The translations under genes and the position numbers were made by a program. A stretch of DNA of 64,000 bases, taken from Elusimicrobiota bacterium (lineage in GTDB: Bacteria; Elusimicrobiota; Elusimicrobia; Elusimicrobiales; UBA9959). This document shows positions 266-54,279 of the stretch, in pieces (the stretch's first letter is position 1; each line of letters opens with the position of its first letter). Where the stretch lies: contig JAPLKI010000016.1 of NCBI GenBank assembly GCA_026388155.1, forward strand, positions 198,705 through 262,704, given 5' to 3'. Below the pieces are notes generated by a model that was given only the letters and a program-made list of their open reading frames with translations, made no database searches and was not told where the DNA came from.

Positions 266-805
266 CTAATTCAGCTTTACTTCCGCGCCGCGTTTCAGGG
301 CTCTTATATTCAGCTCTATAACTTCCGGTTTCAGCTTTTTGTAAACTTTGGGCAGGGCTTTGGCTATTGCGTCTATGGAAATCGCGCCGGTCTGCGCGGC
401 AAAAGCTCCCAGGGCCACCATGTTCATTACTTTGGCGTTGCCCAGTTCTCCGGCTATCTGGTTGCAGGGCACGTAAAGCACCTTTATGTCATTGCGGGAA
501 GCTTTTGAGTGAACGAGACAACTGTTCACTATTAACAGTCCCCCCGGTTTCACCAGCGGTTCGAACTTGGCAAGTGACGGTTCGTTGAGCACTATTACTG
601 TGTCAGGTTCTGAAACTATCGGAGTGGTGACTTCGTCGGAAGATATCACCACCGAACAGTTGGCCGTTCCGCCGCGCATTTCAGCCCCGTATGAAGGGAA
701 GAAGCTTACTTCCCGTCCTTCCAGCATCCCTGAATATGCCAGCAGTACGCCTGCCGAAATAACTCCCTGTCCGCCAAAACCCGAAATTCTTATGCCTTGA
801 TACAT
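266..805 (-). CDS. 2-oxoacid:ferredoxin oxidoreductase, gamma subunit
   Basis: MYQGIRISGFGGQGVISAGVLLA... gamma-subunit signature. Start moved to the ATG at 805 because GGAGGA lies just upstream; the TTG at 823 in the ORF track would include the RBS. Confidence 0.85.
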   Translation of the reverse strand: MYQGIRISGFGGQGVISAGVLLAYSGMLEGREVSFFPSYGAEMRGGTANCSVVISSDEVTTPIVSEPDTVIVLNEPSLAKFEPLVKPGGLLIVNSCLVHSKASRNDIKVLYVPCNQIAGELGNAKVMNMVALGAFAAQTGAISIDAIAKALPKVYKKLKPEVIELNIRALKRGAEVKLN

Positions 806-825
806 GTTAGTTCCTCCTAGCAAAT

Positions 826-891
826 CAGCGTATAGAGACTAGCGGCTAGGGGTTTAGGGAGGAAATTTCCTTCCCTAAACCCTATACGCTG
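826..891. repeat. Imperfect palindromic word element, family W1 (TAGGGG/TTAGGG ... CCCTAA), copy 1
   Basis: CAGCGTATAG..GGGTTTAGGGAGGAAA|TTTCCTTCCCTAAACCCTATACGCTG. Core AAGGRAnnTCCTTCCCTAA is shared with 2741-2835, 17928-18012 and 57474-57568. Confidence 0.7.
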
Positions 892-896
892 TCCGC

Positions 897-1652
897 TTAC
901 CCCTGCTTTTGCGCGTCTTTATAAACTCCCAGCGGGAACACCGGCAGCATCCCCTCGGCCACGAACTTGGTGGCCTCCGACGGATTGTCCAGCCTGGTTC
1001 CCCAGTTTGTCGGGCACATCGAGAGCACTTCCACCATTGAGAAGCCCTTGCAGTCCACCTGGTTCTGGAAGGCTTTCTTTATGGCAGCCTTGGTTTTAAG
1101 CACGCCCGGCGCGGTATGCACCGAGGTGCGTTCAAGGTATGCGGCCCCGTCTATGGTGGCAAGCAGTTCGCACATGCGTATGGGATAGCCCGCCTGTTTT
1201 GCCGTGCGGCCTTCCACACAGGTGGTGGCTTTCTGGCCTATTAAGGTGGTCGGGGCCATCTGGCCGCCGGTCATACCGTAGATGGCGTTGTTAATAAAGA
1301 TCACCGTTATGTTTTCCGAGCGTATGGCCGCATGTACTATTTCCGCCATGCCTATGGAGGCCAGATCGCCGTCGCCCTGGTAGGAGAACACTATAGTGTC
1401 GGGTTTAGACCTTTTAAGGCCCGTTGCGATGGCCGGGCCGCGCCCGTGCGCGCCCTGTATCGTGTCGCAGTTGAAGTAGGCGTCCGCGAATACCGCGCAG
1501 CCCACCGGGGCCACGCATATCGTTCTTGCGCGTATGCCCAGGTCGTCCATTGCCTCCGCTATCAGGCGGTGCACTATGCCGTGCCCGCAGCCCGGGCAGT
1601 AATGCATTTTCAGGTCCAGCAGGGATTCAGGCCTTTTATTTAATAGCTGCAT
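897..1652 (-). CDS. 2-oxoacid:ferredoxin oxidoreductase, beta (TPP-binding) subunit
   Basis: CPGCGHG N-terminal motif and GDGD...N TPP-binding motif (YQGDGDLASIGMAE). Overlaps the alpha gene by 17 nt. Confidence 0.9.
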   Translation of the reverse strand: MQLLNKRPESLLDLKMHYCPGCGHGIVHRLIAEAMDDLGIRARTICVAPVGCAVFADAYFNCDTIQGAHGRGPAIATGLKRSKPDTIVFSYQGDGDLASIGMAEIVHAAIRSENITVIFINNAIYGMTGGQMAPTTLIGQKATTCVEGRTAKQAGYPIRMCELLATIDGAAYLERTSVHTAPGVLKTKAAIKKAFQNQVDCKGFSMVEVLSMCPTNWGTRLDNPSEATKFVAEGMLPVFPLGVYKDAQKQG

Positions 1653-2727
1653 ATTCTTTGGCTCCTTTTTTCATTACGCCTTCAATGGTGGCAAGCACTT
1701 CTTCGGCGGTTATAACCGATCCGCCCGGCTTTGAATGCAGGTAAACCTCACCGCGGCCGTTAAGTGACAGGCGCACATCTTCCACCATCTGCCCCAGGCT
1801 CATCTCAACGGCGATGAATTTCTTTATTCTTCCTGAAAGCTCAATCAGGCGTTTTTTAGGATAAGGCCAAAGCGTGATGGGCCGGAACAGTCCGACTTTA
1901 AGCCCTTTCTCGCGGGCCATTTTCATCGCCGCCATTGAAACCCTGGCGGAAGTACCGTAGGCCACCAGGGCAACCTCGGCGTCCTCAAGCATCTTTTCCT
2001 CATAGAGGACTTCGTTTTCCTCTATCTGCTTGTAGCGTTTCGCGCGTTCCCTGACCATTATTTCAAGGTAGCCTTCGCGCAGGTCGTAAGATTTTACCTG
2101 GCGCTTGGCCCGGCTGTTGTTGACGCCCAGTGCCCAGTCGGGTTCTTTAAGCGTTGTAACATCCACTTCAGGATCTTTGAATTCCACCGGTTCCATCATC
2201 TGGCCTATAATGCCGTCGGCCAGAACCAGGGCCGGTACTCTGTATTTGAAAGCCACCTCATAGCACTTTTGCGGAAAATTACCCATTTCGTTCGCGCCAT
2301 TCGGGGCCATAACGAACAGCCGGTAATCGCCGTGGCCGCCGCCGCGGGTGGACTGCCAGTAGTCGCTCTGCGAGCCCGCGATATTACCCAGCCCCGGGCC
2401 GCCGCGCACTACATTGGCGACTAAAAAGGGAAGGTCCGCGCCGGCGCAGTAGGATATGCCTTCCTGCTTCAGGCTGATGCCGGGGCTGGAAGAAGAGGTC
2501 ATGCAGCGTTTGCCGGTGGCGGCGGCGCCGTAAATCATATTTATTGCCGCTACTTCCGATTCGGACTGTATGAAAGCTCCTCCCACCTGCGGCAGGCGCC
2601 ACGACATGTATTCGGGGACTTCATTTTGCGGGGTTATCGGATAGCCGGCGAAGAACCTGCACCCGGCGCGTACGGCGCCTTCGGCCAGGGCTTCGTTGCC
2701 TTTCATTAATTTTTTTTCAGACATCAT
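1636..2727 (-). CDS. 2-oxoacid:ferredoxin oxidoreductase, alpha subunit
   Basis: LMKGNEALAEGAVRAGCRFFAGYPITPQNE is typical of KorA/PorA/VorA. AAGGAG sits at 2731-2736, so the start is the ATG at 2727 or 2724 rather than the TTG at 2739. Confidence 0.9.
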   Translation of the reverse strand: MMSEKKLMKGNEALAEGAVRAGCRFFAGYPITPQNEVPEYMSWRLPQVGGAFIQSESEVAAINMIYGAAATGKRCMTSSSSPGISLKQEGISYCAGADLPFLVANVVRGGPGLGNIAGSQSDYWQSTRGGGHGDYRLFVMAPNGANEMGNFPQKCYEVAFKYRVPALVLADGIIGQMMEPVEFKDPEVDVTTLKEPDWALGVNNSRAKRQVKSYDLREGYLEIMVRERAKRYKQIEENEVLYEEKMLEDAEVALVAYGTSARVSMAAMKMAREKGLKVGLFRPITLWPYPKKRLIELSGRIKKFIAVEMSLGQMVEDVRLSLNGRGEVYLHSKPGGSVITAEEVLATIEGVMKKGAKEYAAIK

Positions 2728-2740
2728 ATGCTCCTTCAAC

Positions 2741-2835
2741 GTAAGGGTATAGGGGCGAGGGGTTAGCGGTTAGGGTTGAGGTATTAAGGAACTTCTTCCC
2801 TATCCCCTAGTCTCTATCCCCTAGCCCCTGTCACT
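2741..2835. repeat. Word-palindrome element family W1, copy 2
   Basis: GTAAGGGTATAGGGGCGAGGGGTTAGCGGTTAGGG...AAGGAACTTCTTCCCTATCCCCTAGTCTCTATCCCCTAGCCCCTG, between the alpha and delta subunit genes. Confidence 0.7.
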
Positions 2836-3034
2836 TGTAAACCTTTATTGCCAAATCCGGGCAGATGCGCGCGCAACTCTGGCAGGCTATGCAGCAGCCG
2901 ACCTTGGCGTCCAGGGCCGGGTAGTAGCCGGTCTTAGAGAATTTATGGGATTTTTCAATGCACTTCTTGGGGCAGACTTGTATGCAAAGATAGCAGCCCT
3001 TGCACTTATCCACTTCCACTTCCATTTTAGGCAT
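2831..3034 (-). CDS. 2-oxoacid:ferredoxin oxidoreductase delta subunit (2x[4Fe-4S] ferredoxin)
   Basis: Two CxxCxxCxxxCP clusters (CKGCYLCIQVCP, CIACQSCARICP) in 67 aa, first gene of the operon, GGGAGG RBS. Confidence 0.85.
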   Translation of the reverse strand: MPKMEVEVDKCKGCYLCIQVCPKKCIEKSHKFSKTGYYPALDAKVGCCIACQSCARICPDLAIKVYK

Positions 3035-6325: not shown

Positions 6326-6415
6326 GCTGGCGGGCTAGTACGCTGGTATGCTTTCCGAAGTCCCTGAATTAAGCATACAAGCATACTAGCTGGCAATCTT
6401 ACTCGCCTACTAGCC
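6326..6415. repeat. Word-palindrome element (GCTAGTAC / GCATAC words)
   Basis: GGGCTAGTACGCTGGTATGCTT...AAGCATACAAGCATACTAGCTGG...CCTACTAGCC between the aminotransferase and the dehydratase small subunit. Confidence 0.5.
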
Positions 6416-6455
6416 TATGGCTGTGCCGTACCAAGGGCTATGCCCATAAGACGGC

Positions 6456-6959
6456 CTAGCGGTTCACTGTTTCCATCAGTAATTTGCGTGTATAGGAGAC
6501 CAGTCCGCCGGCGTCTATAATAGCCTGGCGCGCCTTCGGGAGCGGCTCGATCGCGAACGATTCGCCGGACGTGCGGTTGAAAACCCTGCCCTGGGCTATT
6601 TCCAGTTCGTCGCCTTCCGCGGCTTCGATCGACGGACAGATCACTATGTCCAGGCCCAGGTTTATCGCGCTCTGCAGGAAAATACGCGCGATGTTCCTGG
6701 CCACTATCGTCAGCTCATGGCCCTTAAGGCAGGATACCGCCTGCTCGCGCGAGGAGCCGCAGCCGAAGTTGTTGCCGCCCAATATAACGCTTCCGGCGGG
6801 GATCCCCCCCGCCTTGAGTTTGCCGTTGAAAGCCGTGTTGTCGGCGAACGCGAACTGCGGTGTTTCGGTGGGCAGCACTGTCGCCATGAACCGGCCGGGA
6901 TAAATGATATCGGTGGACACGTCGTCGCCAACCTTTAGAACAATTTTTTTAGTAGCCAT
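6456..6959 (-). CDS. Aconitase-family dehydratase small subunit (LeuD/HacB-like)
   Basis: DDVSTDIIYPGRF...GGNNFGCGSSREQA swivel-domain motifs. Start at the ATG at 6959 with GGAGG upstream. Confidence 0.8.
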   Translation of the reverse strand: MATKKIVLKVGDDVSTDIIYPGRFMATVLPTETPQFAFADNTAFNGKLKAGGIPAGSVILGGNNFGCGSSREQAVSCLKGHELTIVARNIARIFLQSAINLGLDIVICPSIEAAEGDELEIAQGRVFNRTSGESFAIEPLPKARQAIIDAGGLVSYTRKLLMETVNR

Positions 6960-8312: not shown

Positions 8313-8351
8313 ATTATTATCTCCTTAATGCTAATTTGAGTAGATATCAAC

Positions 8352-8447
8352 TAGCGACTTGCAAATGGCGAATAGTGAATAGGGTCTGCGGAAGAGATTA
8401 TGTTTTTTAATAAACTATTCGCTATTCGCTGTTCCCTATTCGCTATG
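8352..8447. repeat. Word-palindrome element family W3 (GCGAATAG / CTATTCGC), copy 1
   Basis: GGCGAATAGTGAATAGGG...CTATTCGCTATTCGCTGTTCCCTATTCGCTATG. Related copy at 27821-27905. Confidence 0.6.
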
Positions 8448-8449
8448 CC

Positions 8450-9649
8450 CTACACCACGCCCTTAGCTTTCAGGGCGGCCAATTCGGTTTCATCAACTCC
8501 GAGTTCTTTGAGTATTTCCGCCGTGTCGGCCGAAAGGCGCGGGGGCGGCGCGTTAAGCTGTCCCGGCATCTTTTCAAACTTGGCGGAGAGGTCGAACAGT
8601 TTCAGCGTGCCTATGCCCTCGGCAGACACCTCTTTGAGTATCCCGCGGTGCTTTATCTGCGGCTGGTTAAGCGCAGCTTCAAGTTCCAAAATGGCGCCGC
8701 TCGGCACGCCTTTCGCGTTAAGCAGCTCCACCCACTCGGCGGTCGGCTTTTCGGCAAGCTTCACTTCCAGCAGCGGGGTCAGAAGTTTGCGGTTCTTTTT
8801 ACGGGTGTCCCGCTTTTCGAACCGCGGATCTTTCTTCAGTTCCGGAACTCCCAGAATGTCGCAGAGGGCTTCCCACTGCTCCTGCTTGTTCGCCGCGATA
8901 TTAATATAGCCGTCCCTGGCCTTGAACGTTCCTGACGGCGCGGCGGTTAAATTGTCGTTGCCCATCGGCACCGGATGCTGGCCGCCGATAAGGAGGTTCG
9001 CCGCCACCCAGCCCATAAGGGGCATGATCGAGTCCAGCATCGCTATATCGATAAACTGCCCTTCGCCGGTGCGTTCGCGATGATAGAGCGCCGCTAATAC
9101 GGCAAAGGCCGCGTTGAGCCCGCCCACCGTATCGCATACGGGGAAGCCCGCGCGCAGGGGGTTGAGCCTTTCATCGCCGTTGATGTCCATAACGCCGCTC
9201 AAGCCCTGGATTATCTGGTCGTAGGCGGGTTTGAACGCGTCGGGCCCGGTATGGCCGAAGCCGGAGATGGCGCAGTAGACTAGGCGGGGATTTATTTCGG
9301 AAAGGGATTTATAGCCGAGGCCCAGCCGGTCCATAACGTCGGGCCGGAAGTTCTCCACCAGCACATCCGCATTTTTCACCAGCTTCCGGAAGATCTCTTT
9401 ACCCTCCGGAGTCTTGGTGTTCAGGGTCAGCGACTTTTTGTTCGCGTTCTGGGCCAGGAAACTGGTTCCCATCAACTGGTCGTTCAAAGCCGGCATTATG
9501 CCGAGCTTCCGGGCCAGGTCGCCGTCTTTTGGGTTTTCGATCTTAATTACTTCGGCGCCCAGCAGCGCCAGGTGCAGAGTGGCAAAAGGCCCGGCTAACA
9601 CGTTGGTAAGGTCAAGCACCCGTATTCCCGAGAGGATTGGTTTGCTCAT
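8450..9649 (-). CDS. Family III CoA-transferase (CaiB/BaiF/Frc type)
   Basis: GIRVLDLTNVLAGPFATLHLALLGAEVIKIE N-terminus and conserved Asp region PVCDTVGG, 399 aa. Confidence 0.85.
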   Translation of the reverse strand: MSKPILSGIRVLDLTNVLAGPFATLHLALLGAEVIKIENPKDGDLARKLGIMPALNDQLMGTSFLAQNANKKSLTLNTKTPEGKEIFRKLVKNADVLVENFRPDVMDRLGLGYKSLSEINPRLVYCAISGFGHTGPDAFKPAYDQIIQGLSGVMDINGDERLNPLRAGFPVCDTVGGLNAAFAVLAALYHRERTGEGQFIDIAMLDSIMPLMGWVAANLLIGGQHPVPMGNDNLTAAPSGTFKARDGYINIAANKQEQWEALCDILGVPELKKDPRFEKRDTRKKNRKLLTPLLEVKLAEKPTAEWVELLNAKGVPSGAILELEAALNQPQIKHRGILKEVSAEGIGTLKLFDLSAKFEKMPGQLNAPPPRLSADTAEILKELGVDETELAALKAKGVV

Positions 9650-9654: not shown

Positions 9655-9850
9655 CTCCTTTAAGCGGCGTTCACGCCGCTGTCACAAGTTGCATGTCACA
9701 TGACAAGTTGCAAGTCTCATGGCCGTTTGTTAGCCATAGGCCCTGATACTGCACTACCATAGGCTTGTCTCAGGTCACAAGTGAAGAATGAGAGTTCGCT
9801 TGAAACTTGATACTAAGCTTGCTTGTGACCTGTGGCGTGTATCCTGTAAC
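9655..9850. repeat. Hairpin-rich spacer (GTCACAAGT words)
   Basis: GCGGCG-TTCA-CGCCGC hairpin, then repeated GTCACAAGT/GACAAGTTGCAAG words. CAGGTCACAAG (9771-9781) pairs with CTTGTGACCTG (9822-9832). Confidence 0.5.
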
Positions 9851-10801: not shown

Positions 10802-11943
10802 GTCCGCGCCGGGCCGGCTACTGCGCACTTGTCCGCTATGGCCCGCGCCATATCAAGAGTGCTGGCAGAACCGCCCATATCGTAAGTGCGCACTTTGCCC
10901 TCTTTAATCACCAGGGCGGTTGCGTCCTCTATCGCCTTCGCTTTGTCGGCCTCTCCGAGCCATTCAAGCATCATCTTTGCCGCGAGAATGGTGGCGATGG
11001 GATTGACTTTGTAAAGGCCGGCGTACTTGGGCGCAGAGCCGTGAGAGGGTTCGAACACCGCCAGTTTCTCTCCGATATTGGCCGAGCAGCCGAAACCCAG
11101 TCCCCCCACCAGCTGCGCGCTCAGATCCGAGATTATGTCGCCGTACAGGTTCGGGGCGACCATTACGTCGTAGTTGAACGGGTTCTTGATCAGCCACATG
11201 GTCATGGCGTCAATGTTCGCGTCATCTATCTTTATCTCGGGGTAGTCCTTAGCCACGGCGCGCGCCGCTTCTAAAAACAGCCCGTCTGTCGCGCGTACGA
11301 CATTGGCTTTGTGAACCACCGTTACTTTCTTCCGGTTGAACTTGCGGGCGAACTCAAAGGCGGCCCGGGCAATGCGCTCCGAGCCTTTTTTTGTGTTTAT
11401 CTTGCAGGAAATAGCGTATTCATCGCTCTTTAAGTTCTTAAACGCTTTGAACGGGGGTGAAAGTTTGATAAGCGTGTCGCGAAGTTCGTCCGGCACGGTA
11501 TTGAATTCCACGCCTGAATAGAGGTCCTCTGTGTTTTCGCGGAACACCACTATATCAATGCCCTCTTTGTAGTTGAGAGGGTTGCCGGGGTAGGCTTTGC
11601 AGGGGCGCAGGCAAACATAGAGGTCGAACAGCTGCCTCATGCGCACGATAGGCGAGCGGTAAACCATCCCCTTGCCCTGGAGCGCGGGTATCAGCTCCTT
11701 CTCGGCGGTCTTAACCGGCTTTGAAGTGATGGCCCCGAACAGCGCGGCTTTCACGCTCTTAAGGAGGTCAATGGTGCGCTGCGGGAACGCGTCGCCTTCC
11801 TTGCACCAGAAGTCCCAGCCGATGTCGCCGTGGATGTATTCGGCGTCAAATTCAACGCGGTCAAGGACGATACGCGCCGCTTCCATTACTTCTTTGCCGA
11901 CGCCGTCGCCGGGGAGCCATGCTATCTGATGTTTTTTGCCCAT
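10798..11943 (-). CDS. Isocitrate/isopropylmalate/homoisocitrate dehydrogenase family protein
   Basis: NLYGDIISDLSAQLVGGLGFGCSANIG signature and SPIVRMRQLFDLYVCLRP, 381 aa. Confidence 0.85.
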   Translation of the reverse strand: MGKKHQIAWLPGDGVGKEVMEAARIVLDRVEFDAEYIHGDIGWDFWCKEGDAFPQRTIDLLKSVKAALFGAITSKPVKTAEKELIPALQGKGMVYRSPIVRMRQLFDLYVCLRPCKAYPGNPLNYKEGIDIVVFRENTEDLYSGVEFNTVPDELRDTLIKLSPPFKAFKNLKSDEYAISCKINTKKGSERIARAAFEFARKFNRKKVTVVHKANVVRATDGLFLEAARAVAKDYPEIKIDDANIDAMTMWLIKNPFNYDVMVAPNLYGDIISDLSAQLVGGLGFGCSANIGEKLAVFEPSHGSAPKYAGLYKVNPIATILAAKMMLEWLGEADKAKAIEDATALVIKEGKVRTYDMGGSASTLDMARAIADKCAVAGPART

Positions 11944-14110: not shown

Positions 14111-15817
14111 ATGTCTGAAAATGCGAAAGGTTTTACCAGTCACATCAATATGCGCAAGCGCGGGATTTTTATGGCACTCGCCTGTGTTTCTCTGGCTGTT
14201 TATTCCGCAACCGAATTACAGGCCGATTCTTACGAGTCAAGAGCGGAGGTTACCCGCCTTACAAAGTCATTGACCGATTCCAACAGCTATAAGCGCAAGG
14301 CAGCCATTGTCGCCCTGGGCGCACTGGGCTCCGACGCCAAAACTGCGGTTCCCGACCTTACAAACGCGTTGGGTGATTCTGATACCGATGTGCGCGCATT
14401 TGCCGCCGACGCTCTGGGTAAAATAGGCCCCGACGCCAAAACCGCGGTTCCCGAACTTGTAAAGGCGTTAAGCGATTCCAATCCCGATGTCCGCGTGGCG
14501 GCGGCCGTTGCCTTGGGTTTAATCGGCCCGGAAGCCAAAACTGCCGTTCCTAAACTTACAAAGCTTTCAAGCTCTTACAATGCCGACATGCGCGGGGAGG
14601 CTACTGTCGCCCTGGCTAAAATAGGCTCTAACACTCTTGCCGATCTCATAAAAGCGTTAAGCGATTCCGAGGAAAAGGTGCGCAGCCGCGCTGTTGCCGC
14701 CTTGGGCAAAATGGGCCTTGAAGCCAAAACCGCCGTCCCCGAACTTACAAAGGCATTGAGCGATTCCGCCGTCGATGTACGCGCATTAGCCGCCGACGCC
14801 CTGGGTAAAATAGGTCCGGAAGCTAAGACCGCCATTGCCGAACTCACAAAGGGATTGGGCGATTTTAATGCGGTGCGCATAAATGCGGCCTGGGCCCTGG
14901 GGAAAATAGGTCCTGACGCCGCACCCGCTGTTCCCGACCTTATCAAATCGTTGAGCGATTCTAATGACGAGGTGCGCATAAGTGCGGCCGGCGCCCTGGG
15001 GAAAATAGGCCCCGAAGCCAAAACCGCGGTTTCTGAACTCGCAAAATCATTAAGCGATTCTAACAACAAAGTGCGCGAAAACGCGGCCGGCGCCCTGGGG
15101 AAAATAGGCCCGGAGGCCAAAAGCGCCGTTCCCGAACTTACAAAGGCGTTGAGTGACTCTAACGATAAACTGCGCAAATTAGCCGCCGGCGCATTAGGTT
15201 TAATAGGCCCTGAGGCCAAAGACGCTGTTCCGGAACTCACCAAACTATTGGGCGATCCTAACGATGAGGCGCGCGCGAATGCCGCCGCCGCCCTGGATAA
15301 AATAAACCCTAAAGCCGAAACCGCCGTTCCTGAAAGCAAAACCACTGTGAGCGAGGCTGAGGATATTGCGCGCAAAGCGTATGCCCAGGCTCCGGATAAA
15401 ACAAGTCCTCAAAACAAAGACGCGGTTACCGAACTTATAAAAGCCTTAAGCGATTCTGACATAGGCGCGCGCACAGCTGCCGCCCGCACCCTGGGTAAAC
15501 TCGGTTCCGGAGCCAAAAACGCGGTTCCTGACCTTGCGCTGGCATTAGGCGATTCCGATGCCGGCGTGCGCAAAGCCGTCGCCCAAGCCCTGGGTAAAAT
15601 AGGCCCCAAGGCCAAAAGCGCCGTTCCTGAACTTATAAAAGCGTTGAGCGATTCAGATGCCGGCGTGCGCATATTAACCGCCCAAGCCCTGGGTAAAATG
15701 GGCACAAAGGCCAAAAGCGCGATCCCTGAACTTAACAAAGCGTTGAACGATTCCGACGCCGGCGTGCGCAAATTTGCCGCCAAAGCCCTGAGTAAAATAA
15801 ATCCGCCGGCTAAATAG
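14111..15817 (+). CDS. HEAT-repeat (PBS-lyase HEAT-like) protein, exported or anchored
   Basis: About 17 tandem ~31-aa units AKTAVPELTKALSDSNxxVRxxAAxALGKIGPE. AAGGAGG RBS. Hydrophobic N-terminal segment. Confidence 0.8.
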   Translation: MSENAKGFTSHINMRKRGIFMALACVSLAVYSATELQADSYESRAEVTRLTKSLTDSNSYKRKAAIVALGALGSDAKTAVPDLTNALGDSDTDVRAFAADALGKIGPDAKTAVPELVKALSDSNPDVRVAAAVALGLIGPEAKTAVPKLTKLSSSYNADMRGEATVALAKIGSNTLADLIKALSDSEEKVRSRAVAALGKMGLEAKTAVPELTKALSDSAVDVRALAADALGKIGPEAKTAIAELTKGLGDFNAVRINAAWALGKIGPDAAPAVPDLIKSLSDSNDEVRISAAGALGKIGPEAKTAVSELAKSLSDSNNKVRENAAGALGKIGPEAKSAVPELTKALSDSNDKLRKLAAGALGLIGPEAKDAVPELTKLLGDPNDEARANAAAALDKINPKAETAVPESKTTVSEAEDIARKAYAQAPDKTSPQNKDAVTELIKALSDSDIGARTAAARTLGKLGSGAKNAVPDLALALGDSDAGVRKAVAQALGKIGPKAKSAVPELIKALSDSDAGVRILTAQALGKMGTKAKSAIPELNKALNDSDAGVRKFAAKALSKINPPAK

Positions 15818-15846
15818 GGGCGGCTGGAAAAGCCAACAGCCCCTTT

Positions 15847-15925
15847 CAGGTATACAGAATTCAGTAGTCAGAATTCAGGATGGCCTGCTTCTGACTGCTG
15901 AATTCTTACTTCTGGCTACCTGAGC
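15847..15925. repeat. Word-palindrome element family W2 (CAGAATTCAG / CTGAATTCTG), copy 1
   Basis: CAGGTATACAGAATTCAGTAGTCAGAATTCAGGA...TTCTGACTGCTGAATTCTTACTTCTGGCTACCTG. Confidence 0.65.
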
Positions 15926-15961
15926 AGTTACGCTGACAGAACAATTACGAGGTAAAGCGCT

Positions 15962-16799: not shown

Positions 16800-17819
16800 C
16801 TATTGCCCGTCGTTCACGTAAATGGAACCGCTCAGGCGGCCTCTGCCGTTTAGATAGACGAAGCTGCCGCTGGGCCAGCCGCTGACATTGATGCTGCCGC
16901 TCATATTAGCGGAGCCGACATATTTGCCGTCCTGGTAAAACTGCGCGGAAACGTTGGGCCACACGGTTTGGAACACATACTGGTTCGGGTGTATCCACAT
17001 GGAGGCCGGCACGGTAATGTACGCCTGATTGGACCGGATCTTGCCGGAGGCGTCGCTGAAGGCGGCCGAGCCGGTGAGATTGACGGTGGTATAGCCGCCG
17101 TTTTGCGGCACAAAGCCGTTGCCGGTCAGGTTTACGTCGCCGGAAACCTGTACGTACTGGCTGGTTTTCGTCTTGGAGGGCTGAGCGGCGGGGGCTGATT
17201 TGTCGGCCTGCACGGCCAGTGCGAACGTGACTACGGCGGCCACGGCGGTTTTTGAATATTGCGTGGTGTCAAAGCTGCCGTTTATTCCGGTCTTGTTTAT
17301 ACTAAGGTTCAGGCCGTAGGAATTAACGTTGAAGGAGAACTCGTCGAAGCTTTTGTACATGGTCAGATTGAGGTATTTGGTCTGGCCGTTTTCAGTCACG
17401 TTGCCTGAAATATTATAGTTTCCCCCCCATTCATCCATACTAAGGAACATGCCCGAGCCGCTCAGCTGGTAGTTTGTATTACCGCTTTTGCGTACCGTGG
17501 CCCATTGGTAATTATTGTCCACTCTGCAGTTCACGTCGAACTGGCTATCAAAAACTTTGCGGACCGTGACGTCTATTCTCGCCATATAATCCTGCGCTTC
17601 CACCTCTTTCATGGAAACATTATTATTGATGTTCATCCAGAGGTTTGTGTATGCCCTGGTCTGCTCGGTTTTTACCGCCGGCTCCGCTTTTTGCGCAACA
17701 GGCGCAGGTACGCTTATTTCCTGTTGTTTAATGTCGGAAGCCTTAAGGGAAACAAGATCCAAAGCATAGGCGTTGGGAGCTATAGTAACGGCAAGTATCA
17801 GATATAGTATATTTTTCAT
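16800..17819 (-). CDS. Secreted hypothetical protein
   Basis: MKNILYLILAVTIAPNAYA signal peptide. No recognised domain. Confidence 0.55.
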   Translation of the reverse strand: MKNILYLILAVTIAPNAYALDLVSLKASDIKQQEISVPAPVAQKAEPAVKTEQTRAYTNLWMNINNNVSMKEVEAQDYMARIDVTVRKVFDSQFDVNCRVDNNYQWATVRKSGNTNYQLSGSGMFLSMDEWGGNYNISGNVTENGQTKYLNLTMYKSFDEFSFNVNSYGLNLSINKTGINGSFDTTQYSKTAVAAVVTFALAVQADKSAPAAQPSKTKTSQYVQVSGDVNLTGNGFVPQNGGYTTVNLTGSAAFSDASGKIRSNQAYITVPASMWIHPNQYVFQTVWPNVSAQFYQDGKYVGSANMSGSINVSGWPSGSFVYLNGRGRLSGSIYVNDGQ

Positions 17820-17927: not shown

Positions 17928-18012
17928 GCAGCGGATAGGGGCTAGCGGTTAGGGGATTAGGGGATGAATAAGGGACTCCTTCCCTAACCGCTAACCTCTC
18001 TCCTCTATTCTC
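17928..18012. repeat. Word-palindrome element family W1, copy 3
   Basis: GGATAGGGGCTAGCGGTTAGGGGATTAGGGGATGAATAAGGGACTCCTTCCCTAACCGCTAACCTCTCTCC upstream of mntP. Confidence 0.7.
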
Positions 18013-18054
18013 TGGAATTTTAACTCGCCGTCCATTAAATTATACAATCGTATT

Positions 18055-18630
18055 GTGAAAACATTGGAAATATTGCTGATAGCATTGGGGCTTTCCATGG
18101 ACGCTTTTGCGGTGGCGGTGGCAAGCGGGGCCGCTATGAAAAAACTGCATCTGCCCAATGCCGTTAAAATGGGGCTTTTTTTCGGCGGCTTTCAGGCGCT
18201 GATGCCGGCGCTTGGCTGGCTTGCGGGCCTGCGGCTGAAAAATTTTATTTCAGGTTTTGACCATTGGCTGGCCTTCGGCCTGCTTGGTTTTATAGGCGGG
18301 AAAATGATCCATGAGTCTTTCAAAATGAAAGAAGAGCAAACCTGCGGGAGCAAATCCTCCCCCTTTGATACGGGAACCCTTACCCTGCTTTCGATTGCCA
18401 CCAGTATTGACGCTCTGGCCGTGGGTATCACATTTTCCATGCTGACGGTTTCTATAGCCGGCCCCGCGCTTATAATAGGACTGGTGACGTTCGCTCTTTC
18501 TGTTCTTGGCGTGGCGCTGGGCTCAAAAACGGGGCACTTTTTTGAAAACCGGATGGAGGCTCTTGGCGGGCTTATACTGATAGCCATAGGCCTTAAGATC
18601 CTGTTTGAACACCTGGGCTTTATCGGCTGA
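18055..18630 (+). CDS. mntP: Manganese efflux pump MntP
   Basis: LGLSMDAFAVAVASG and SIDALAVGITFS duplicated motifs, six TM segments, GTG start. Confidence 0.85.
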   Translation: MKTLEILLIALGLSMDAFAVAVASGAAMKKLHLPNAVKMGLFFGGFQALMPALGWLAGLRLKNFISGFDHWLAFGLLGFIGGKMIHESFKMKEEQTCGSKSSPFDTGTLTLLSIATSIDALAVGITFSMLTVSIAGPALIIGLVTFALSVLGVALGSKTGHFFENRMEALGGLILIAIGLKILFEHLGFIG

Positions 18631-25561: not shown

Positions 25562-26040
25562 TAACTTCCGCAATGAGACCCCCTGCTGTTTAAGCGCGAT
25601 TTATGAAAACTTGGCGGGTGGTTATGTTGGGGGCGGTTGGTGTTAAATAAGTCGCGATTCACTATTTGGAGCGGGTGGCGGGGGAGCTGGGTTAGCAAAA
25701 CCGTCCGGAGGCCGAGACTTGCATAAGCGGCGAGGCCGAGGAACGGAAGGGCGGGCACGGTGAGGTCCGGCTTTAGGCCGTCTGATGGGCATAGCCCGTG
25801 AAACGGCACGGCCATAGGCCAGAGCGAAGCATAATTATGCTTCGCGTCCGGGCCGCAAGGGCGGAGGCGGTTCCCTGCGCAGCAGAACCGCCGAGCCGGG
25901 GTCGCGGAAAACAGCTATGCGGTTTATCCGTGACTGTCCCGACCCTGGTTTTGCGTTCCAGTCGCCCGACAGGACCCGCGAACCCTAAATTTGGCTGCGA
26001 GAACACCCAAAACCCAGCATGCTATCGTCGTGAGGACCTT
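25562..26040. other. Large GC-rich noncoding structured element A
   Basis: No credible ORF. Many hairpins, for example the 22-nt palindrome GCGAAGCATAATTATGCTTCGC at 25825-25846. Three collinear blocks are shared with element B in reverse orientation. Confidence 0.6.
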
Positions 26041-26061: not shown

Positions 26062-27813
26062 TCAATCCAGGTAATCGTCTTTCTTTTTTTTCATGAAGCG
26101 GGCGAACCAGCTTCCCGGCGCCGGTTTTTTTTGCTGTTCCTGGCGGGGCTGTTGCCCTTGGCGTTGTCCGCCGGACTGCCATTCCGGACGCATGCGGCTT
26201 CCGCCCTGGCCGCGGTTGCGGCGGGCAGGCGGGCGCGGGCCGTGCGGGCGGCCATGGCTGCGCGGTTCGTCAAAATAAGGGGAAGCCTCAACACGGTGCC
26301 CGCCCGGCGCGGTAAACCTGAAATTTCCGCTTTGATCTCTGCCCCGCGCTTTTGGGGCAATCTGTTGGTGTGTGGGGTTATAAACGGGGCGACCAGCCCT
26401 GCTTTCTGTGCCAAAAGTGCGGGGCCTGCTCCGCTCGTTTGGAGCGTTATGCGGGCGTGTGTAATTATGGGCGGGGCCTGACTGCCGGCGATAAGGCGCC
26501 GCCGGGGTCCTTGTATTGTCCGAAGGCCTGCGCTGTCCCTGATATTGAGGAGCCCTTTTTTGAAAGTGGCTTTGTGCCGGCGGTCGCGGGGGATTGGGCC
26601 GCTGCGCAGGTTTTGAAACGGGCGCCGACGGATTTAATTGTATGACCGGGGCTTTGGGTTTCGCCGGAGTGCGGGCAATCGGAGCGAGTTTCGGCAGAGG
26701 CAAAACGGGCAGTATAGTCCGGAGAAGCCGTTCTATGGCTTTCAGGTCGCCGCGCTGGTCGGGCGTGGCGAAAGAAATGGCGTGGCCGGGCTGGCCCGCC
26801 CGGCCGGTGCGGCCTATGCGATGAACATAATTTTCATTTTCGTCCGGCAGGTCGTAGTTTATTACCAGCTCGATGCCGATAACGTCTATGCCGCGGGCGG
26901 CAATATCCGTGGCCACCAGCACGCGGTAGCGGCCAGTTTTAAATCCGTCCAGGGCCTCCTTCCGCTGGTTAAGGGAACGGTTGGAATGGATTTCCGCCGC
27001 GTTGTAGCCGCTTTCGCGGATGTTCTGCACTATCCTGTGAGCGCTGCGCTTGGTGCGCACGAAAAGAAGAACGCTGCCGCCGTATTGCCCTAAAATAGTG
27101 GTAAGCAGCGCCGCCTTTTCGGCTTTTGAAACCATGAAAACTTCCTGTTTTGTCTTTTCTATCGCGGTGCCAGGCCTGGCTACTTCCACTCTGAGAGGCA
27201 GTTTCATGCGGGCGGCGGCGAGCTTCATTATCCCGTCGGGCATGGTGGCCGAGAACAGCATTGTCTGGCGGTCTTTGGGCACCTGCTCAAGTATGCGGTT
27301 TATCTGCGGGGCAAAGCCCATGTCGAACATGCGGTCCGCTTCGTCCAGTATGAGCACGCAGACATCGTCAAGGCGCACGGTGCGCTGCTGCATGTGGTCG
27401 ATAAGCCGGCCGGGCGTGGCTATTATCACGCGCGGTTTTTTGCGCAGGTCCTGCTGCTGGCGGCTTATGGACTCTCCGCCGATTATCACGGAAGTCTGGA
27501 TACCCGCGAGCGAAGCGAATTGTTTAAACACCTCGTTTACCTGCAAAGCCAGTTCCCGGGTCGGGACAAGAACAAGGCCCCTGCCTTTAAGTCCCGCCAG
27601 GCGCTGAAGCACGGGTATGGCAAACGCTATGGTCTTGCCCGTGCCGGTCTGGGCGATGCCCACAAGATCCTTTCCTTCAAGGGCGGGCGGGATGGCTCTT
27701 GCCTGTATGGGCGTGGGCGTTTTAAACTTCAGCGCGTCAAGCGCGGCTAAAAGTTTAGGGGCTATTCCAAGCCCGTAGAAACCTGCTGAATCGTTTTTTT
27801 CGTTTTCGGTCAT
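26062..27813 (-). CDS. DEAD-box ATP-dependent RNA helicase with a ~215-aa R/P/Q/G-rich C-terminal tail
   Basis: Q-motif PTPIQ, AQTGTGKT, DEAD, SAT and HRIGRTGRAG. Start at the ATG at 27813. Confidence 0.9.
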   Translation of the reverse strand: MTENEKNDSAGFYGLGIAPKLLAALDALKFKTPTPIQARAIPPALEGKDLVGIAQTGTGKTIAFAIPVLQRLAGLKGRGLVLVPTRELALQVNEVFKQFASLAGIQTSVIIGGESISRQQQDLRKKPRVIIATPGRLIDHMQQRTVRLDDVCVLILDEADRMFDMGFAPQINRILEQVPKDRQTMLFSATMPDGIMKLAAARMKLPLRVEVARPGTAIEKTKQEVFMVSKAEKAALLTTILGQYGGSVLLFVRTKRSAHRIVQNIRESGYNAAEIHSNRSLNQRKEALDGFKTGRYRVLVATDIAARGIDVIGIELVINYDLPDENENYVHRIGRTGRAGQPGHAISFATPDQRGDLKAIERLLRTILPVLPLPKLAPIARTPAKPKAPVIQLNPSAPVSKPAQRPNPPRPPAQSHFQKRAPQYQGQRRPSDNTRTPAAPYRRQSGPAHNYTRPHNAPNERSRPRTFGTESRAGRPVYNPTHQQIAPKARGRDQSGNFRFTAPGGHRVEASPYFDEPRSHGRPHGPRPPARRNRGQGGSRMRPEWQSGGQRQGQQPRQEQQKKPAPGSWFARFMKKKKDDYLD

Positions 27814-27820
27814 AATTAAG

Positions 27821-27905
27821 CGGCAAATACTAAGCAAGCAAATAGCAAATAGTTAATAGTGAACATTAAAGTTTCTCCGGCTGCTACTATTCGCCATTTG
27901 CTTTT
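27821..27905. repeat. Word-palindrome element family W3, copy 2
   Basis: GCAAATAGCAAATAGTTAATAGTGAAC...CTACTATTCGCCATTTGC in the helicase 5' leader. Confidence 0.55.
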
Positions 27906-27926
27906 ATCTTTCCACCTGAACAGTTC

Positions 27927-28391
27927 CTAAGGGTTCAGTTTCCGCAGCAGCTCGGCGGTGACTATAAGGCGATAGCTGTTGAGAGCGGCCGGAGTGCTGT
28001 TGCGGCCCTTGGGGGACACTTTTTCAAAGCCGAAGCGCAAATGACAGCAGGTGGTCACTAAATTCCCGTCCTCGCAGGCGTACCATATTTCCCTGGCCCC
28101 GTTTTCAATGGCGTAGCGGATGCGCGACGCCGTAAGGGCCTTGGCTATGCCGCGCTCTCTCCATTCAGGTTTTACCCGCAGACCGTCCAGCGTCCACCGC
28201 GAGCGCTTTTTATAAACTACCGAGTGTCCCACTATACCGCCGCCGCAATAGGCCGCGAAATAGGCGTGGGGCATGGCAAGGGTGGGCTTTGGCGGAGGAG
28301 AATCGCGGTAAAAGGCGTCAAACTGCTTTTTCCACGCCGCGTCTTCCACGGCCACCCTGCGTATTTCCACTATTTCTTTTTCCGGTTTCAT
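27927..28391 (-). CDS. GNAT family N-acetyltransferase
   Basis: 154 aa. RVKPEWRERGIAKALTASRIRYAIENGAREIW matches the acetyl-CoA-binding R/Q-x-x-G-x-A pattern. Confidence 0.7.
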   Translation of the reverse strand: MKPEKEIVEIRRVAVEDAAWKKQFDAFYRDSPPPKPTLAMPHAYFAAYCGGGIVGHSVVYKKRSRWTLDGLRVKPEWRERGIAKALTASRIRYAIENGAREIWYACEDGNLVTTCCHLRFGFEKVSPKGRNSTPAALNSYRLIVTAELLRKLNP

Positions 28392-28451
28392 AACTTAAGT
28401 ATAGCGGCCCCCGGCCTTAAACGGCTGTGTCAACGGCTCTATTTTGCTTTG

Positions 28452-28732
28452 GGCCTTTAGGGCCCGCAACAGAATAATATGAGCATTTGGAGGCCCAGAT
28501 TTGAGCCGGATGCAAGGCGCGACGAGGGAGCATAGCGGTGTCTATGTGACTGAGGAGCAACGCGGCAGCCGGTTCAAAGATGGGCCTCCCCCTGGGGGCT
28601 GGCCGCTTTTGGGCTGCGCCTTTGCGGCGTTCCGCTAACGTACATGTAGTACGCGTCGCTTCACGCCGCTTCGGCTCGCTCCAAAATCGACTCAGCCAAA
28701 TGTCCATATTATTCTGTTGCGGGCCCCTTAGC
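28452..28732. mobile_element. MITE-like noncoding element C with ~32-bp terminal inverted repeats
   Basis: GGGCCCGCAACAGAATAATATGagCATTTGG (28460-28490) against CCAAATGtcCATATTATTCTGTTGCGGGCCC (28697-28727). GC-rich hairpin-rich interior with no ORF. Confidence 0.55.
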
Positions 28733-28775
28733 TCATGTGTAGTGGGGCCAACGGCTCTTGCGGCTCACTAAAAGG

Positions 28776-30080
28776 CTATTTTGTTCTGTACATGCTGCGG
28801 CGCTTCATGCGGAAGCTGGTGGGCAGGTTTTTGGGGCTTGCTCCGCCTCCGCCTCCCCTGAAACCTCCCCGCCCGCCGGTGTTCTTGGACTGGGGAGGCA
28901 GGCCTATCAGCTTCGCGGCTGGAATTTCGGGATGGGATACTATATTGATCTGCATTCTTATGAGTCGTTCAATATTGCGCAGGTCTGTTTCCTGTTCGGG
29001 GGTCACGAACGAAATGGCGTGGCCCGCCTTACCGGCGCGGCCGGTGCGGCCTATACGGTGCACATAGCTTTCATCGTCGTCGGGCAGGTCGTAATTCAGC
29101 ACTATTTCTATGCCTACTACATCTATGCCGCGCGCGGCTATGTCGGTGGCCACCAGAATGCGGTATTTGCCGGTTTTAAATCCCTCAAGGGCTTCTTTGC
29201 GCTGGCCCAGAGTGCGGTCGGAATGAATTTCCGCCACGCTGTGGCCCATGTCGCGGATATCGCGTGTGATGTCGCACGCGTTATATCGGGTGCGCACGAA
29301 CAGCAGCACGGTGCCCCAATACTTATCCAGCAGCTTTGAAAGCAAAGCCGGCTTGAGGCCGCGGTTGACCACATAAACTTCCTGCACGACATTTTCCACC
29401 ACGGTGCCGGAGCGGGCCACTTCCACGCGGGTGGGAAGCTTCATGTATTTGGCGGCGAGTTTCATTATTTCATCCGGCATGGTGGCGGAGAACAGCATGG
29501 TTTGGCGTTCTTTCGGCACATATTGCAGTATGCGGTTTATCTGAGGGGCGAATCCCATGTCGAACATACGGTCGGCTTCATCCAGAACCAGCACCTGAAC
29601 GTCATCCAGTTTTACCGTGTTCTGCTGAACATGGTCGAGCAGGCGGCCGGGAGTGGCCACAATAACGCGCGGTTTCTTTTTAAGGGCGGTAAGCTGGCCG
29701 GAGATGTTTTCCCCTCCTATAAGCACCACGGAGGTCATTCCCAGAAGCGGAGCGAATTGTTTATACACTTCGTTCACCTGTATGGCCAGTTCGCGCGTGG
29801 GCACAAGTATCAGCCCCTTGCCCGGCTTGGCGGCCAGCGTCTGTATCATCGGAATGGCGAACGCTATGGTTTTGCCGGTACCGGTCTGGGCTATGCCGAC
29901 CATGTCGTTGCCCGAACAGGCTATCGGTATGGCTTGTTTTTGTATGGGGGTGGGTTCCACGAATTTCATACGGTCAAGGGCTTCAAGGAGCTTCGGGGCT
30001 ATGCCCAGCCCGTAAAAGCCCGGAACCGGAACGGAAACCTTGGCTTTTCCTTTCATCATCGAGATAAATCTTTTAATCAT
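28776..30080 (-). CDS. DEAD-box ATP-dependent RNA helicase (paralog) with a short RGG tail
   Basis: Same motif set as the 26062 helicase. C-terminus is GGRGGFRGGGGG. Confidence 0.9.
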   Translation of the reverse strand: MIKRFISMMKGKAKVSVPVPGFYGLGIAPKLLEALDRMKFVEPTPIQKQAIPIACSGNDMVGIAQTGTGKTIAFAIPMIQTLAAKPGKGLILVPTRELAIQVNEVYKQFAPLLGMTSVVLIGGENISGQLTALKKKPRVIVATPGRLLDHVQQNTVKLDDVQVLVLDEADRMFDMGFAPQINRILQYVPKERQTMLFSATMPDEIMKLAAKYMKLPTRVEVARSGTVVENVVQEVYVVNRGLKPALLSKLLDKYWGTVLLFVRTRYNACDITRDIRDMGHSVAEIHSDRTLGQRKEALEGFKTGKYRILVATDIAARGIDVVGIEIVLNYDLPDDDESYVHRIGRTGRAGKAGHAISFVTPEQETDLRNIERLIRMQINIVSHPEIPAAKLIGLPPQSKNTGGRGGFRGGGGGASPKNLPTSFRMKRRSMYRTK

Positions 30081-32798: not shown

Positions 32799-32866
32799 TT
32801 TTTCCTGCCTTTGGTGCCGGTGGTCTCTGACGCTGTCATCCGGCCAATACTTGTGTAGGTGCCGTA

Positions 32867-33376
32867 TCAGGGCCTATGGCCGTCGGACGGCCTCCTGTAA
32901 AAAACATTGACCGGGGCAATTGTCTTGCGCATTAATAGTTCGTCATGGCCCCGCACGATAAAATCCGCCAGGCGCCCGCATTGCCGGTAGCCCAGCCGCT
33001 TGTAAAACCTTATGGCTTTTTTATTAAAGGAAGAGACGCAGAGAAAAACGTTGGGCGCGCGCGAGAATATTTTTTCTTCCGCGTGTTCCATCATCTGGGC
33101 GCCCAGTCCCCGGTCGCGGAAGGTCTCTGCCACAAAAAGCGATTGTATATAGCCGCGGAAGGTGCCGTACATGGTTATTATCGCAAGGCCGGCGATCTCA
33201 CGCTCGGAGCGCGCTATGTAAACCTCGCGGAACGGAGCGGTCATGGAATTAAGGCAGGCGCGGTAGCCGCGGCCTAGTTTCCGCCAGGGGTCCGAGGCCG
33301 CCATAAGGCGCGCCGCGCGCTTTAAAACCTGCATGGATGAAGTTTTTGAGATTTTGATCTGGGCTTTAACCGGCAT
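32867..33376 (-). CDS. GNAT family N-acetyltransferase
   Basis: FVAETFRDRGLGAQMMEHAE acetyl-CoA-binding motif. Start at the ATG at 33376. Confidence 0.7.
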   Translation of the reverse strand: MPVKAQIKISKTSSMQVLKRAARLMAASDPWRKLGRGYRACLNSMTAPFREVYIARSEREIAGLAIITMYGTFRGYIQSLFVAETFRDRGLGAQMMEHAEEKIFSRAPNVFLCVSSFNKKAIRFYKRLGYRQCGRLADFIVRGHDELLMRKTIAPVNVFYRRPSDGHRP

Positions 33377-33431
33377 AACTAAATGATACAAAATTACTCA
33401 TCTGGGCTGGATTAGTGTAGGTTTTAATAAG

Positions 33432-33631: not shown

Positions 33632-33677
33632 TTAATTGCTGACTTTTTCAGCAGCCCCAATTTAGTAGAATTTTGAA

Positions 33678-35017: not shown

Positions 35018-35056
35018 GAGTGCAGGCTGAAGGCTGAAGGTAAAAAATATAACCCG

Positions 35057-53238: not shown

Positions 53239-53248
53239 AGTTCCCTCG

Positions 53249-54270: not shown

Positions 54271-54279
54271 GCGTAGTTC

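Follow-up and report, generated by a model that had tools for sequence, protein, structure and literature searches.

Heptanucleotide repeats named STRR were reportedly described from heterocystous cyanobacteria by Mazel et al. in 1990, and the miniature inverted-repeat transposable elements called MITEs are represented in bacteria by Correia/NEMIS, Nezha and ERIC. The palindromes known as REP, BIME or REPIN are 20-40 nt long, carry an unpaired GTAG or CGTC tag at one end and are mobilised by RAYT transposases (PMC3733652, PMC3116915). G-rich heptamer repeats of unknown function, GGGAATC in Xanthomonas and GGGGAYT in Nostoc and Anabaena, were described by Rehm et al. 2015 (PMC4692102), and each Xanthomonas genome contains 70-75 convergent inverted pairs of them which are capable of forming stem-loops (PMC4692102). 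These heptamer repeats of Xanthomonas and Nostoc are the closest known relatives of the element reported here, W1, which was found in 64,000 nt of DNA from an Elusimicrobiota bacterium (assembly GCA_026388155.1, contig JAPLKI010000016.1, positions 198,705 to 262,704; this whole stretch is referred to as the window). Judged from its sequence, W1 is a small, previously undescribed palindromic intergenic repeat of a clade of uncultivated groundwater Elusimicrobia. It is probably a non-autonomous, selfish or neutral palindromic repeat that behaves in the genome like a MITE or REP element and whose arms change by heptamer units.

The window contains four copies of W1, and each copy is composed of G-rich 7-nt words on the 5' side (TAGGGGC, TAGCGGC, CGAGGGG and TTAGGGG), a centre of the form AAGGRA-N-TYCTT, and complementary C-rich words on the 3' side. 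In the family as a whole, the best conserved part is a 12-nt apex palindrome, AAGGAACTCCTT, and there is also an asymmetric 8-nt block, GCAGAAAT, that has no partner on the opposite side. With the boundaries used in this study, the four copies are:

826-891, W1 copy c1, between the beta stop codon (897-899) and the gamma ribosome-binding site (RBS; 812-818), with the gamma start at 805
2743-2830, W1 copy c2, between the delta stop codon (2831-2833) and the alpha RBS (2732-2737), apex AAGGAACTTCTT at 2786-2797
17929-18014, W1 copy c3, between divergent genes, apex AAGGGACTCCTT at 17970-17981
57474-57566, W1 copy c4, occupying the space between two convergent genes, with GCAGAAAT and then the apex AAGGAATTCCTT at 57522-57533

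The initial annotation had placed four spacers with a common centre at these sites, and its positions were right to within a few bases. The 24-nt pattern AAGGRANTYCTTCCCTAWNCNCTA, which covers the centre together with the two right-arm words next to it, was found exactly in c2, c3 and c4 compared to 0.00 matches expected (100 shuffles), showing that its recurrence is not due to chance. Copy c1 was detected by the family hidden Markov model (HMM) at E = 1.7e-6. The looser core 10-mer TCCTTCCCTA, with 1 mismatch allowed, gave by itself 4 matches compared to 3.5 expected, which is not significant, and therefore the longer pattern was required. When the four copies were aligned with MAFFT, the mean column identity was 70% and the heptamer register was kept. 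On either strand, all four gave long imperfect hairpins with energies between -37 and -55 kcal/mol, which shuffled sequences almost never matched; the folding z-scores were -1.8 to -5.8 for the elements and -8.2, -5.6 and -5.7 for the whole spacers of c1, c2 and c4, respectively. The G-rich left arms, complementary C-rich right arms and long imperfect hairpins that had been proposed for these spacers were thus confirmed.

The near-consensus copy in the window is c4, while c1, c2 and c3 have a degraded apex or no GCAGAAAT. The ends of c1 form a perfect 10-bp inverted pair, CAGCGTATAG/CTATACGCTG, its variant centre AGGAAATTTCCTT at 860-872 has a 3-nt instead of a 1-nt middle, and its left arm contains a 14-nt bulge word block. 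The neighbours of c3 are an uncharacterised 339-aa open reading frame (ORF) at 16800-17819 on the minus strand and the MntP gene at 18055-18630 on the plus strand. Copy c4 lies between a Peptidase_S58 gene (56319-57476, plus strand) and an ORF at 57570-58661 (minus strand); the TAG stop codon of the former (57474-57476) is the first word of c4, and the element finishes 3 nt away from the convergent gene's stop codon.

A census of the core bore out the claim that these spacers form a genuine repeat family. When one genome per species was searched (185,579 species), there were 25 exact matches to the 24-nt pattern, compared to approximately 2 expected by chance according to our own rough estimate. 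Nineteen of the 25 were in four Elusimicrobia metagenome-assembled genomes (MAGs), namely UBA9634, OS_PC_MetaG.mb.28, GWA2_51_34 and NC_groundwater_1548, with 8, 6, 3 and 2 matches, respectively; the others were 3 matches in the cyanobacterium Floridaenema and 3 singletons without heptamer context. An HMM built from these copies was run on the 8-kb sequences flanking the matched loci (approximately 152 kb in total) and revealed approximately 13 additional, diverged copies, and the density was about one copy per 12 kb around the scanned loci and one per 16 kb in the window. A metagenome scan with the 17-nt apex returned at least 120 loci. Approximately 30 of the 120 matches listed sit in the same heptamer arms, some of which are near-perfect (TAGAGGG)n, and there is no context common to the other 90, so that the apex is not a fragment of a common gene. 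Altogether 69 unique HMM matches were gathered, approximately 60 of which are in Elusimicrobia or in heptamer-arm contexts, and the latter come from at least five Elusimicrobia genomes and from metagenomes. No match to W1 was found in viral, plasmid and phage collections, and a full-text literature search found no account of such repeats in Elusimicrobia. In the window and three further W1 loci, no Rfam 15 family matched W1 at its gathering score; a permissive search returned only hairpins resembling miRNA precursors at 25-27 bits compared to the 80-97 bits required.

The anatomy of the family rests on approximately 60 copies, of which 24 are full-length. The full-length copies measure approximately 67-111 nt and are colinear with defined inverted ends, (C/A)AGGGTAKAGGG ... 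CCCTMTACCCT(G/T), and their flanks are A/T-rich. The arms are made of TAG-anchored G-rich heptamers mirrored by complementary C-rich heptamers. In most copies found by the HMM, 11-12 of the 12 apex positions are kept while the arms vary, and some copies bear the same apex on arms made of other words (GAATAGC, GGCACAAA or CACAAGT). In the Floridaenema loci (L011, L019 and L024), AAGGGAATTCTT forms the junction between 8-mer arrays of (GGGGAGCA)n and heptamer arrays of (CCCCTAA/CCCCTAC)n. These matches were not counted as members of the family, their 8-mer left arm and 7-mer right arm being non-complementary, and the pattern may be either a chance junction beside abundant CCCCTAA arrays or a convergent architecture.

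Two of the window copies, c1 and c2, lie within an operon at 266-3034 (minus strand) that is identified by Pfam as a four-subunit 2-oxoacid:ferredoxin oxidoreductase (kor) in the order delta-alpha-beta-gamma:

266-805, minus strand, gamma subunit gene (POR)
897-1652, minus strand, beta subunit gene (TPP_enzyme_C)
1636-2724, minus strand, alpha subunit gene (POR_N and PFOR_II)
2831-3034, minus strand, delta subunit gene (two 4Fe-4S clusters)

The Pfam assignment agrees with the earlier placement of the copies between the gamma and beta genes and between the alpha and delta genes. The alpha subunit is 100% identical to an Elusimicrobia MAG protein that carries the NCBI name VorB. Copy c1 begins 5 nt past the beta stop codon and finishes 7 nt ahead of the gamma Shine-Dalgarno sequence; c2 begins at the base adjoining the delta stop codon and finishes approximately 6 nt ahead of that of alpha. 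The alpha and beta genes overlap by 17 nt, a promoter-like site is present upstream of delta (3128-3101), and a canonical terminator-like site (3265-3251) follows the preceding response-regulator gene. When both kor spacers were scanned, neither a promoter-like nor a terminator-like site was present. For these reasons c1 and c2 are very probably co-transcribed with the kor genes, as the initial annotation had also supposed; we consider this inference well founded, and with the operon as a single transcript both hairpins would belong to the kor mRNA. An interpretation of the spacers as intrinsic terminators or promoters was ruled out, as both a U tract and a promoter-like site are missing from them.

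The orthologous kor operons of six relatives were compared, with the following results, the KorA identities being those to the window:

L003 and L004, KorA identity 81%: delta-alpha spacer of 12 nt comprising the stop codon, RBS and start codon only; beta-gamma spacer of 14 nt, likewise
UBA9634 (L034), KorA identity 81%: delta-alpha spacer with a W1 copy having the same boundaries and orientation as c2; beta-gamma spacer of 14 nt, empty
L031, KorA identity 87%: delta-alpha spacer without W1 and as in L030; beta-gamma spacer with a decayed W1, a recognisable orthologue of c1
L030, KorA identity 87%: delta-alpha spacer with a GC-rich non-heptamer hairpin; beta-gamma spacer like that of L031
L032, KorA identity 88%: delta-alpha spacer with a TAGAATA/CAGAATA word palindrome; beta-gamma spacer not covered
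L001 and L002, KorA identity 91%: delta-alpha spacer with a GATTACAGTG word palindrome (z = -9.3); beta-gamma spacer with a GGGAGTCN 8-mer array

Orthologous sites are thus empty, filled with W1 or filled with another hairpin, indicating that the kor spacers are lineage-restricted additions with heavy turnover and not original to the operon, and that the enzyme operon functions without them. The 12-14 nt empty sites of L003 and L004 answer the question raised in the initial annotation of whether the spacers are insertions. It had also been held that unrelated spacers of the same length in orthologous operons would mean that there is no repeat family. Such unrelated spacers of similar length were found in some of the operons, but the status of W1 as a family stands on the independent evidence of the census and the HMM. 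Between c2 and the delta-alpha W1 of UBA9634 the mean column identity was 88% including short flanks, and approximately 85% by our own estimate for the element, compared to 78% for the korA DNA of the window and UBA9634. By korA, UBA9634 clusters with L003, whose kor sites are empty. The beta gene of L001 extends into the repeat array (11818-11852) and encodes 259 aa instead of 251-253 aa. Over approximately 21 nt, the TAG-anchored heptamers supply stop codons to each of the three frames.

The initial annotation had suggested that the hairpins could affect how stable the subunit cistrons are or how they are processed. On this view, the intercistronic hairpins would be selected RNA elements, either REP/BIME-like or RNase III sites, through which the delta, alpha-beta and gamma cistrons come to differ in stability or processing. 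Consistent with such a role, strong stem-loops lie exactly between stop codon and RBS and leave the RBS free, and in the expanded relatives the same two spacers are always filled with hairpins, even of unrelated sequence. Moreover, W1 also occurs between nuoL, nuoM and nuoN in three genomes, CAGAATT hairpins occur between genes of an efflux operon, and the delta-alpha W1 has been kept at approximately 85% identity across lineages. The L003 and L004 operons, however, have no spacer, and that of UBA9634 lacks the beta-gamma one. Among 52 classifiable copies of W1, 42 are between co-directional genes, but there are also 5 between convergent and 5 between divergent genes. The orientation of the core relative to transcription was random, with 22 of the 42 co-directional copies in sense and 20 in antisense, and the transcribed strand folded no better than its complement (-44.5 compared to -44.9 kcal/mol, p = 0.68). 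A search for covariation with RNAalifold on 18 full-length copies yielded 12 pairs, and this was uninformative because nearly all of them were invariant. The lack of an orientation preference and of a better fold in the transcribed strand, together with the spacer-free orthologues, argues against a selected role, and the suggested tuning of cistron stability or processing found no support here; we consider it unlikely that the hairpins are selected RNA elements. The possibility that the apex acts as a Shine-Dalgarno or anti-Shine-Dalgarno sequence (AAGGAG/CUCCUU) was rejected because its orientation relative to the genes is random.

A short-period self-similarity scan of the window revealed 8 tracts at lag 7, compared to 0-2 at lags 5, 6, 8 and 9. 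Tracts at lag 7 were found in every W1-bearing Elusimicrobia locus, and lag 7 was the commonest period in nearly all of them, the exception being L025, which had more at lag 8. No lag-7 tract was found in 35 kb of L003/L004, nor in three chance matches, and therefore the heptamer trait tracks the genome. The window copies consist of degenerate words and not of the near-perfect iteration of a single unit. Sharing of arm 7-mers (Jaccard index) was higher within genomes than between them (0.089 and 0.051, respectively, p = 0.0002), so that each genome has its own arm 'dialect', which indicates amplification or gene conversion within genomes. When the left arm of one copy was compared to the right arm of another, a weak copy-specific signal of complementarity was found (p = 0.019), which is partly due to subfamilies.

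W1 copies are also present between nuoL and nuoM and between nuoM and nuoN, the genes of antiporter-like subunits of Complex I (L068 2049-3653; L015 at approximately 466; L018 at approximately 3414). The copy between nuoM and nuoN is shared as an orthologue by three genomes; its aligned identity there is 78-90%, much as in the flanking genes, but there are gaps at 28-84 positions, the difference lying mainly in how many heptamer units are present, indicating that the arms change by whole units. In L001 (2129-2220) and L002 (2232-2374), a GAATAGT-type hairpin located between a CoA-transferase and an aconitase gene shares neither sequence nor length between the two, over the whole distance from stop to start codon. 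Its flanks are 100% identical over 2.1 kb upstream and approximately 99.5-100% identical downstream (10 kb), L001 and L002 being two assemblies of one population. This site is either hypervariable or has undergone allelic replacement.

Such changes raise the alternative that the palindromes are purely local products of in-place heptamer slippage followed by fold-back (template-switch) copying of the array, with no dispersed element involved. The strictly 7-nt periodicity, the unit-number insertions and deletions at orthologous sites, the half elements without a left arm, the different words at the same site in relatives and the hairpin that was wholly remodelled between L001 and L002 within identical flanks would all be expected in this case, and heptamer simple-sequence repeats have been ascribed to slippage (PMC4692102, discussion). 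In contrast, a non-repetitive core of approximately 20 nt, specific ends and colinear arms are common to approximately 60 copies at unrelated loci of at least five genomes. Independent slippage cannot account for this, and a purely local origin is thus decidedly improbable. A hybrid, in which W1 was dispersed as a unit and then subjected to slippage, is likely to be part of the best explanation.

The constancy of the apex on changing arms also bears on what the unit of the family is. It is conceivable, though we hold it to be quite improbable, that the true unit is the apex of approximately 20 nt (GCAGAAAT plus AAGGAACTCCTT), acting as a strand-specific enzyme-recognition module that seeds or regenerates heptamer arrays on both of its sides, for example by fold-back synthesis starting from the apex palindrome. 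This would explain the presence of the apex on arms of unrelated words, the half elements, the remodelled hairpin of L001 and L002 and the similar apex in Floridaenema. If it were true, the word palindromes would be actively made and rapidly remodelled and would not be decaying copies of a transposon.

Alternatively, the same apex could be a protein recognition site that a hairpin or cruciform presents at its tip, with the arms serving only as scaffolding; the protein might be a nucleoid protein, a regulator, or a nuclease or recombinase that is strand-specific. The apex is the best conserved part of W1 while the arms are variable, and it is the same on GAATAGC, GGCACAAA and CACAAGT arms. Moreover, the two strands of the element are intrinsically unequal, in that the one complementary to the core folded better regardless of host transcription (-46.1 compared to -43.0 kcal/mol, p = 0.0003; approximately 60 non-independent copies). 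However, the copies share master ancestors, so that both the conservation and the asymmetry are perhaps just inherited, no candidate protein was found, and 3 of the 4 window copies have the apex defects noted above. These points make a protein site very unlikely. An integron attC site was rejected by inspection, as the conservation in W1 is at the apex and not at the base and its hosts are conserved operons and not cassette arrays.

The G-rich arm could also form a G-quadruplex (or i-motif) in DNA or RNA and modulate neighbouring genes, as has been proposed for the GGGAATC repeats. The arm words are G3-4 tracts at 7-nt spacing, and the commonest number of G3+ tracts in the left arm was four (22 of 60 copies), echoing the four-unit preference seen in Xanthomonas and Nostoc (PMC4692102). 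But no more than 21 of 60 left arms contained a canonical quadruplex motif (loops of 1-7 nt), and the four window copies had none, so that a G-quadruplex was rejected for them as a general explanation. In addition, the sister families CAGAATT and GAATAGC have the same architecture without G tracts, and hairpin pairing with the complementary arm would be a competing use of the G tracts. Regulation by quadruplexes is thus extremely unlikely.

We therefore favor the interpretation of W1 as a non-autonomous selfish or neutral repeat. Copies would have spread to many intergenic sites and would have been inherited vertically thereafter. The arms would lengthen, shorten and diverge by whole heptamer units in the manner of simple-sequence repeats, presumably by slippage, and the copies would be homogenised within each genome. 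Surviving copies would be limited to harmless sites, which in operons means the handful of bases separating a stop codon from the Shine-Dalgarno sequence that follows; purifying selection confining operon copies to this gap would account for the tight placement of c1 and c2. The alpha and gamma RBS of the kor mRNA would then each have a stem-loop just upstream, the two measuring approximately -37 to -45 kcal/mol. These stem-loops may act as passive barriers to 3'-exonucleases, protecting the upstream cistrons, or as RNase III substrates, and by analogy a REP-like effect of W1 on mRNA is possible. As the orthologous operons indicate, the kor operon does not need them.

Several observations weigh against this interpretation. 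No transposase or other mobilising-enzyme domain, Y1_Tnp included, was found among approximately 60 ORFs of the window, and no autonomous parent with W1 ends was found in 1.1 Mb of loci, where a single pair of W1-type ends 0.4-4 kb apart brackets nuoM and not a transposase. Comparison of filled and empty sites by eye gave a possible TGA...TGA at the delta-alpha site and nothing at the beta-gamma site or at c4, and hence no consistent target-site duplication. A few copies have a right arm only, and one copy has non-complementary arms. Unrelated hairpins occupy the same sites in close relatives, where the hairpin could be selected. The delta-alpha W1 is more alike than the korA DNA of the same genomes (approximately 85% and 78%, respectively), which hints at selection or ongoing gene conversion, and the apex and GCAGAAAT are conserved far beyond what a decaying selfish element would need. 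The conservation of the apex and of the delta-alpha copy leaves room for a function or for active maintenance.

Word hairpins in the window are not confined to W1, and approximately 11 of the approximately 45 intergenic regions of at least 45 nt contain heptamer-word hairpins:

15850-15929, CAGAATT/AATTCTG hairpin
53143-53247, CAGAATT/AATTCTG hairpin, between the MFS and HlyD genes
54177-54278, CAGAATT/AATTCTG hairpin
63744-63809, CAGAATT/AATTCTG hairpin
27833, GAATAGC/GCTATTC hairpin
8348-8456, GAATAGC/GCTATTC hairpin with GAATAGY/CTATTCG words and without the W1 apex, between a CoA-transferase and an aconitase gene
23008, GAAGGCT word hairpin

In an efflux operon, CAGAATT hairpins separate the MFS, HlyD and OEP genes. 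At the site orthologous to 8348-8456, L001 and L002 have words of the same type that are heavily remodelled. The presence of several word families, with copies in an efflux operon, indicates that intercistronic word hairpins are a trait of the genome and not specific to kor.

Repeats of other kinds were also present. A distinct dispersed family of the GGCCTATGGC...GCCATAGGCC type was found at 6410-6458, 25774-25822, 9721-9754 and 32859-32892, with copies that are 82-88% complementary, and the GC-rich hairpin that occupies the delta-alpha spacer of L030 resembles it. A non-heptamer inverted repeat at 33426-33637 has 34-nt arms that are 94% complementary and 144 nt apart, and lies in a 286-nt divergent spacer (33392-33677, z = -9.0). 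A palindrome of 30 + 30 nt with a perfect centre was found at 35039-35098 (spacer z = -7.7), and a 154-nt direct repeat, 97% identical, at 35549 and 40409. In-frame tandem repeats are present within genes at 14207-15852, 38258-39127 and 42869-43674; the repeat types are a 99-nt HEAT repeat (568-aa protein), a 138-nt Kelch repeat (968-aa protein) and 84-nt and 192-nt repeats (Cys-rich repeat protein). Two paralogous DEAD-box helicase genes (26062-30080 and 31383-32798) share approximately 74% DNA identity over several hundred bases (repeat families D5, D6, D13 and D17), and a beta-CASP/RMMBL (RNase J-like) gene is close to this pair, placing enzymes of RNA remodelling and decay amid structured intergenic RNA. 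On the plus strand at 59157-59763, a tRNA gene is apparently split by a group I intron (Rfam Intron_gpI at 59445-59721, 82.9 bits). The putative 5' half, which looks like an acceptor and D arm, starts at approximately 59157, and the T arm GGTTCGAGTCC and the 3' acceptor are at approximately 59740-59763. In the window, no tRNA was detected by ARAGORN, nor was one recovered by simple splicing in silico. The intron may be approximately 530 nt long and enclose the ORF at 59207-59560.

These findings show that a candidate-phylum lineage seen only in metagenomes carries dense structured intergenic repeats, approximately one per 12-16 kb, even within the kor and nuo operons. For annotation, W1 accounts for inflated intercistronic gaps and for shifted stop codons, because its TAG words can supply the stop, and it marks likely break points of assemblies. 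If the hairpins do affect the fate of mRNA, they would constitute a lineage-specific layer of operon regulation. W1 joins in one element the heptamer simple-sequence repeats and the MITE/REP-like palindromes, whose literatures are usually separate, and is a tractable case for the origin of heptamer palindromes.

Compared to MITEs, W1 is likewise a non-coding element of approximately 100 nt with terminal inverted repeats, dispersed at insertion-polymorphic sites and probably co-transcribed with its neighbours. Unlike MITEs, the whole element is one hairpin and its periodic arms change by unit number, and it was not filed as a MITE because neither a consistent target-site duplication nor, in 1.1 Mb of loci, a parent insertion sequence with matching ends was found. 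In size and in its varied hairpin or heptamer context, the apex module of approximately 20 nt (GCAGAAAT plus AAGGAACTCCTT) resembles the small dispersed repeats (SDR, 21-27 nt) that Elhai et al. reportedly described from Nostoc punctiforme in 2008, a likeness that we offer as a lead. As with REP and BIME, W1 copies are high-copy intergenic palindromes, often in operons after stop codons, that would give RNA hairpins when transcribed, and occur in both orientations. Nevertheless, W1 is not a REP or REPIN, because its length of 67-111 nt compared to 20-40 nt and its paired ends without a terminal GTAG or CGTC tag do not fit; its arms are also tandem heptamers, and no RAYT gene was found near W1 in the 64-kb window. 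The initial annotation was therefore correct that the construction is unlike REP families, but it is not without precedent, which is provided by the inverted heptamer arrays of Xanthomonas and Nostoc (PMC4692102). In common with those heptamers, W1 has a 7-nt unit with a G3-4 tract, is dispersed in non-coding DNA, lies mostly between co-directional ORFs (42 of 52 copies) near stop and start codons, differs strongly in unit number and sequence among close relatives at the same sites, most often has four G tracts, and has inverted arms able to form stem-loops. In contrast to them, the units of W1 are degenerate (TAGGGGC, TAGCGGC, TAGAGGG) and not near-perfect iterations, a conserved non-repetitive apex of approximately 20 nt and defined inverted ends make it a discrete colinear element, it belongs to another phylum, the Elusimicrobia, and several unrelated word families of the same architecture are present together in one genome.

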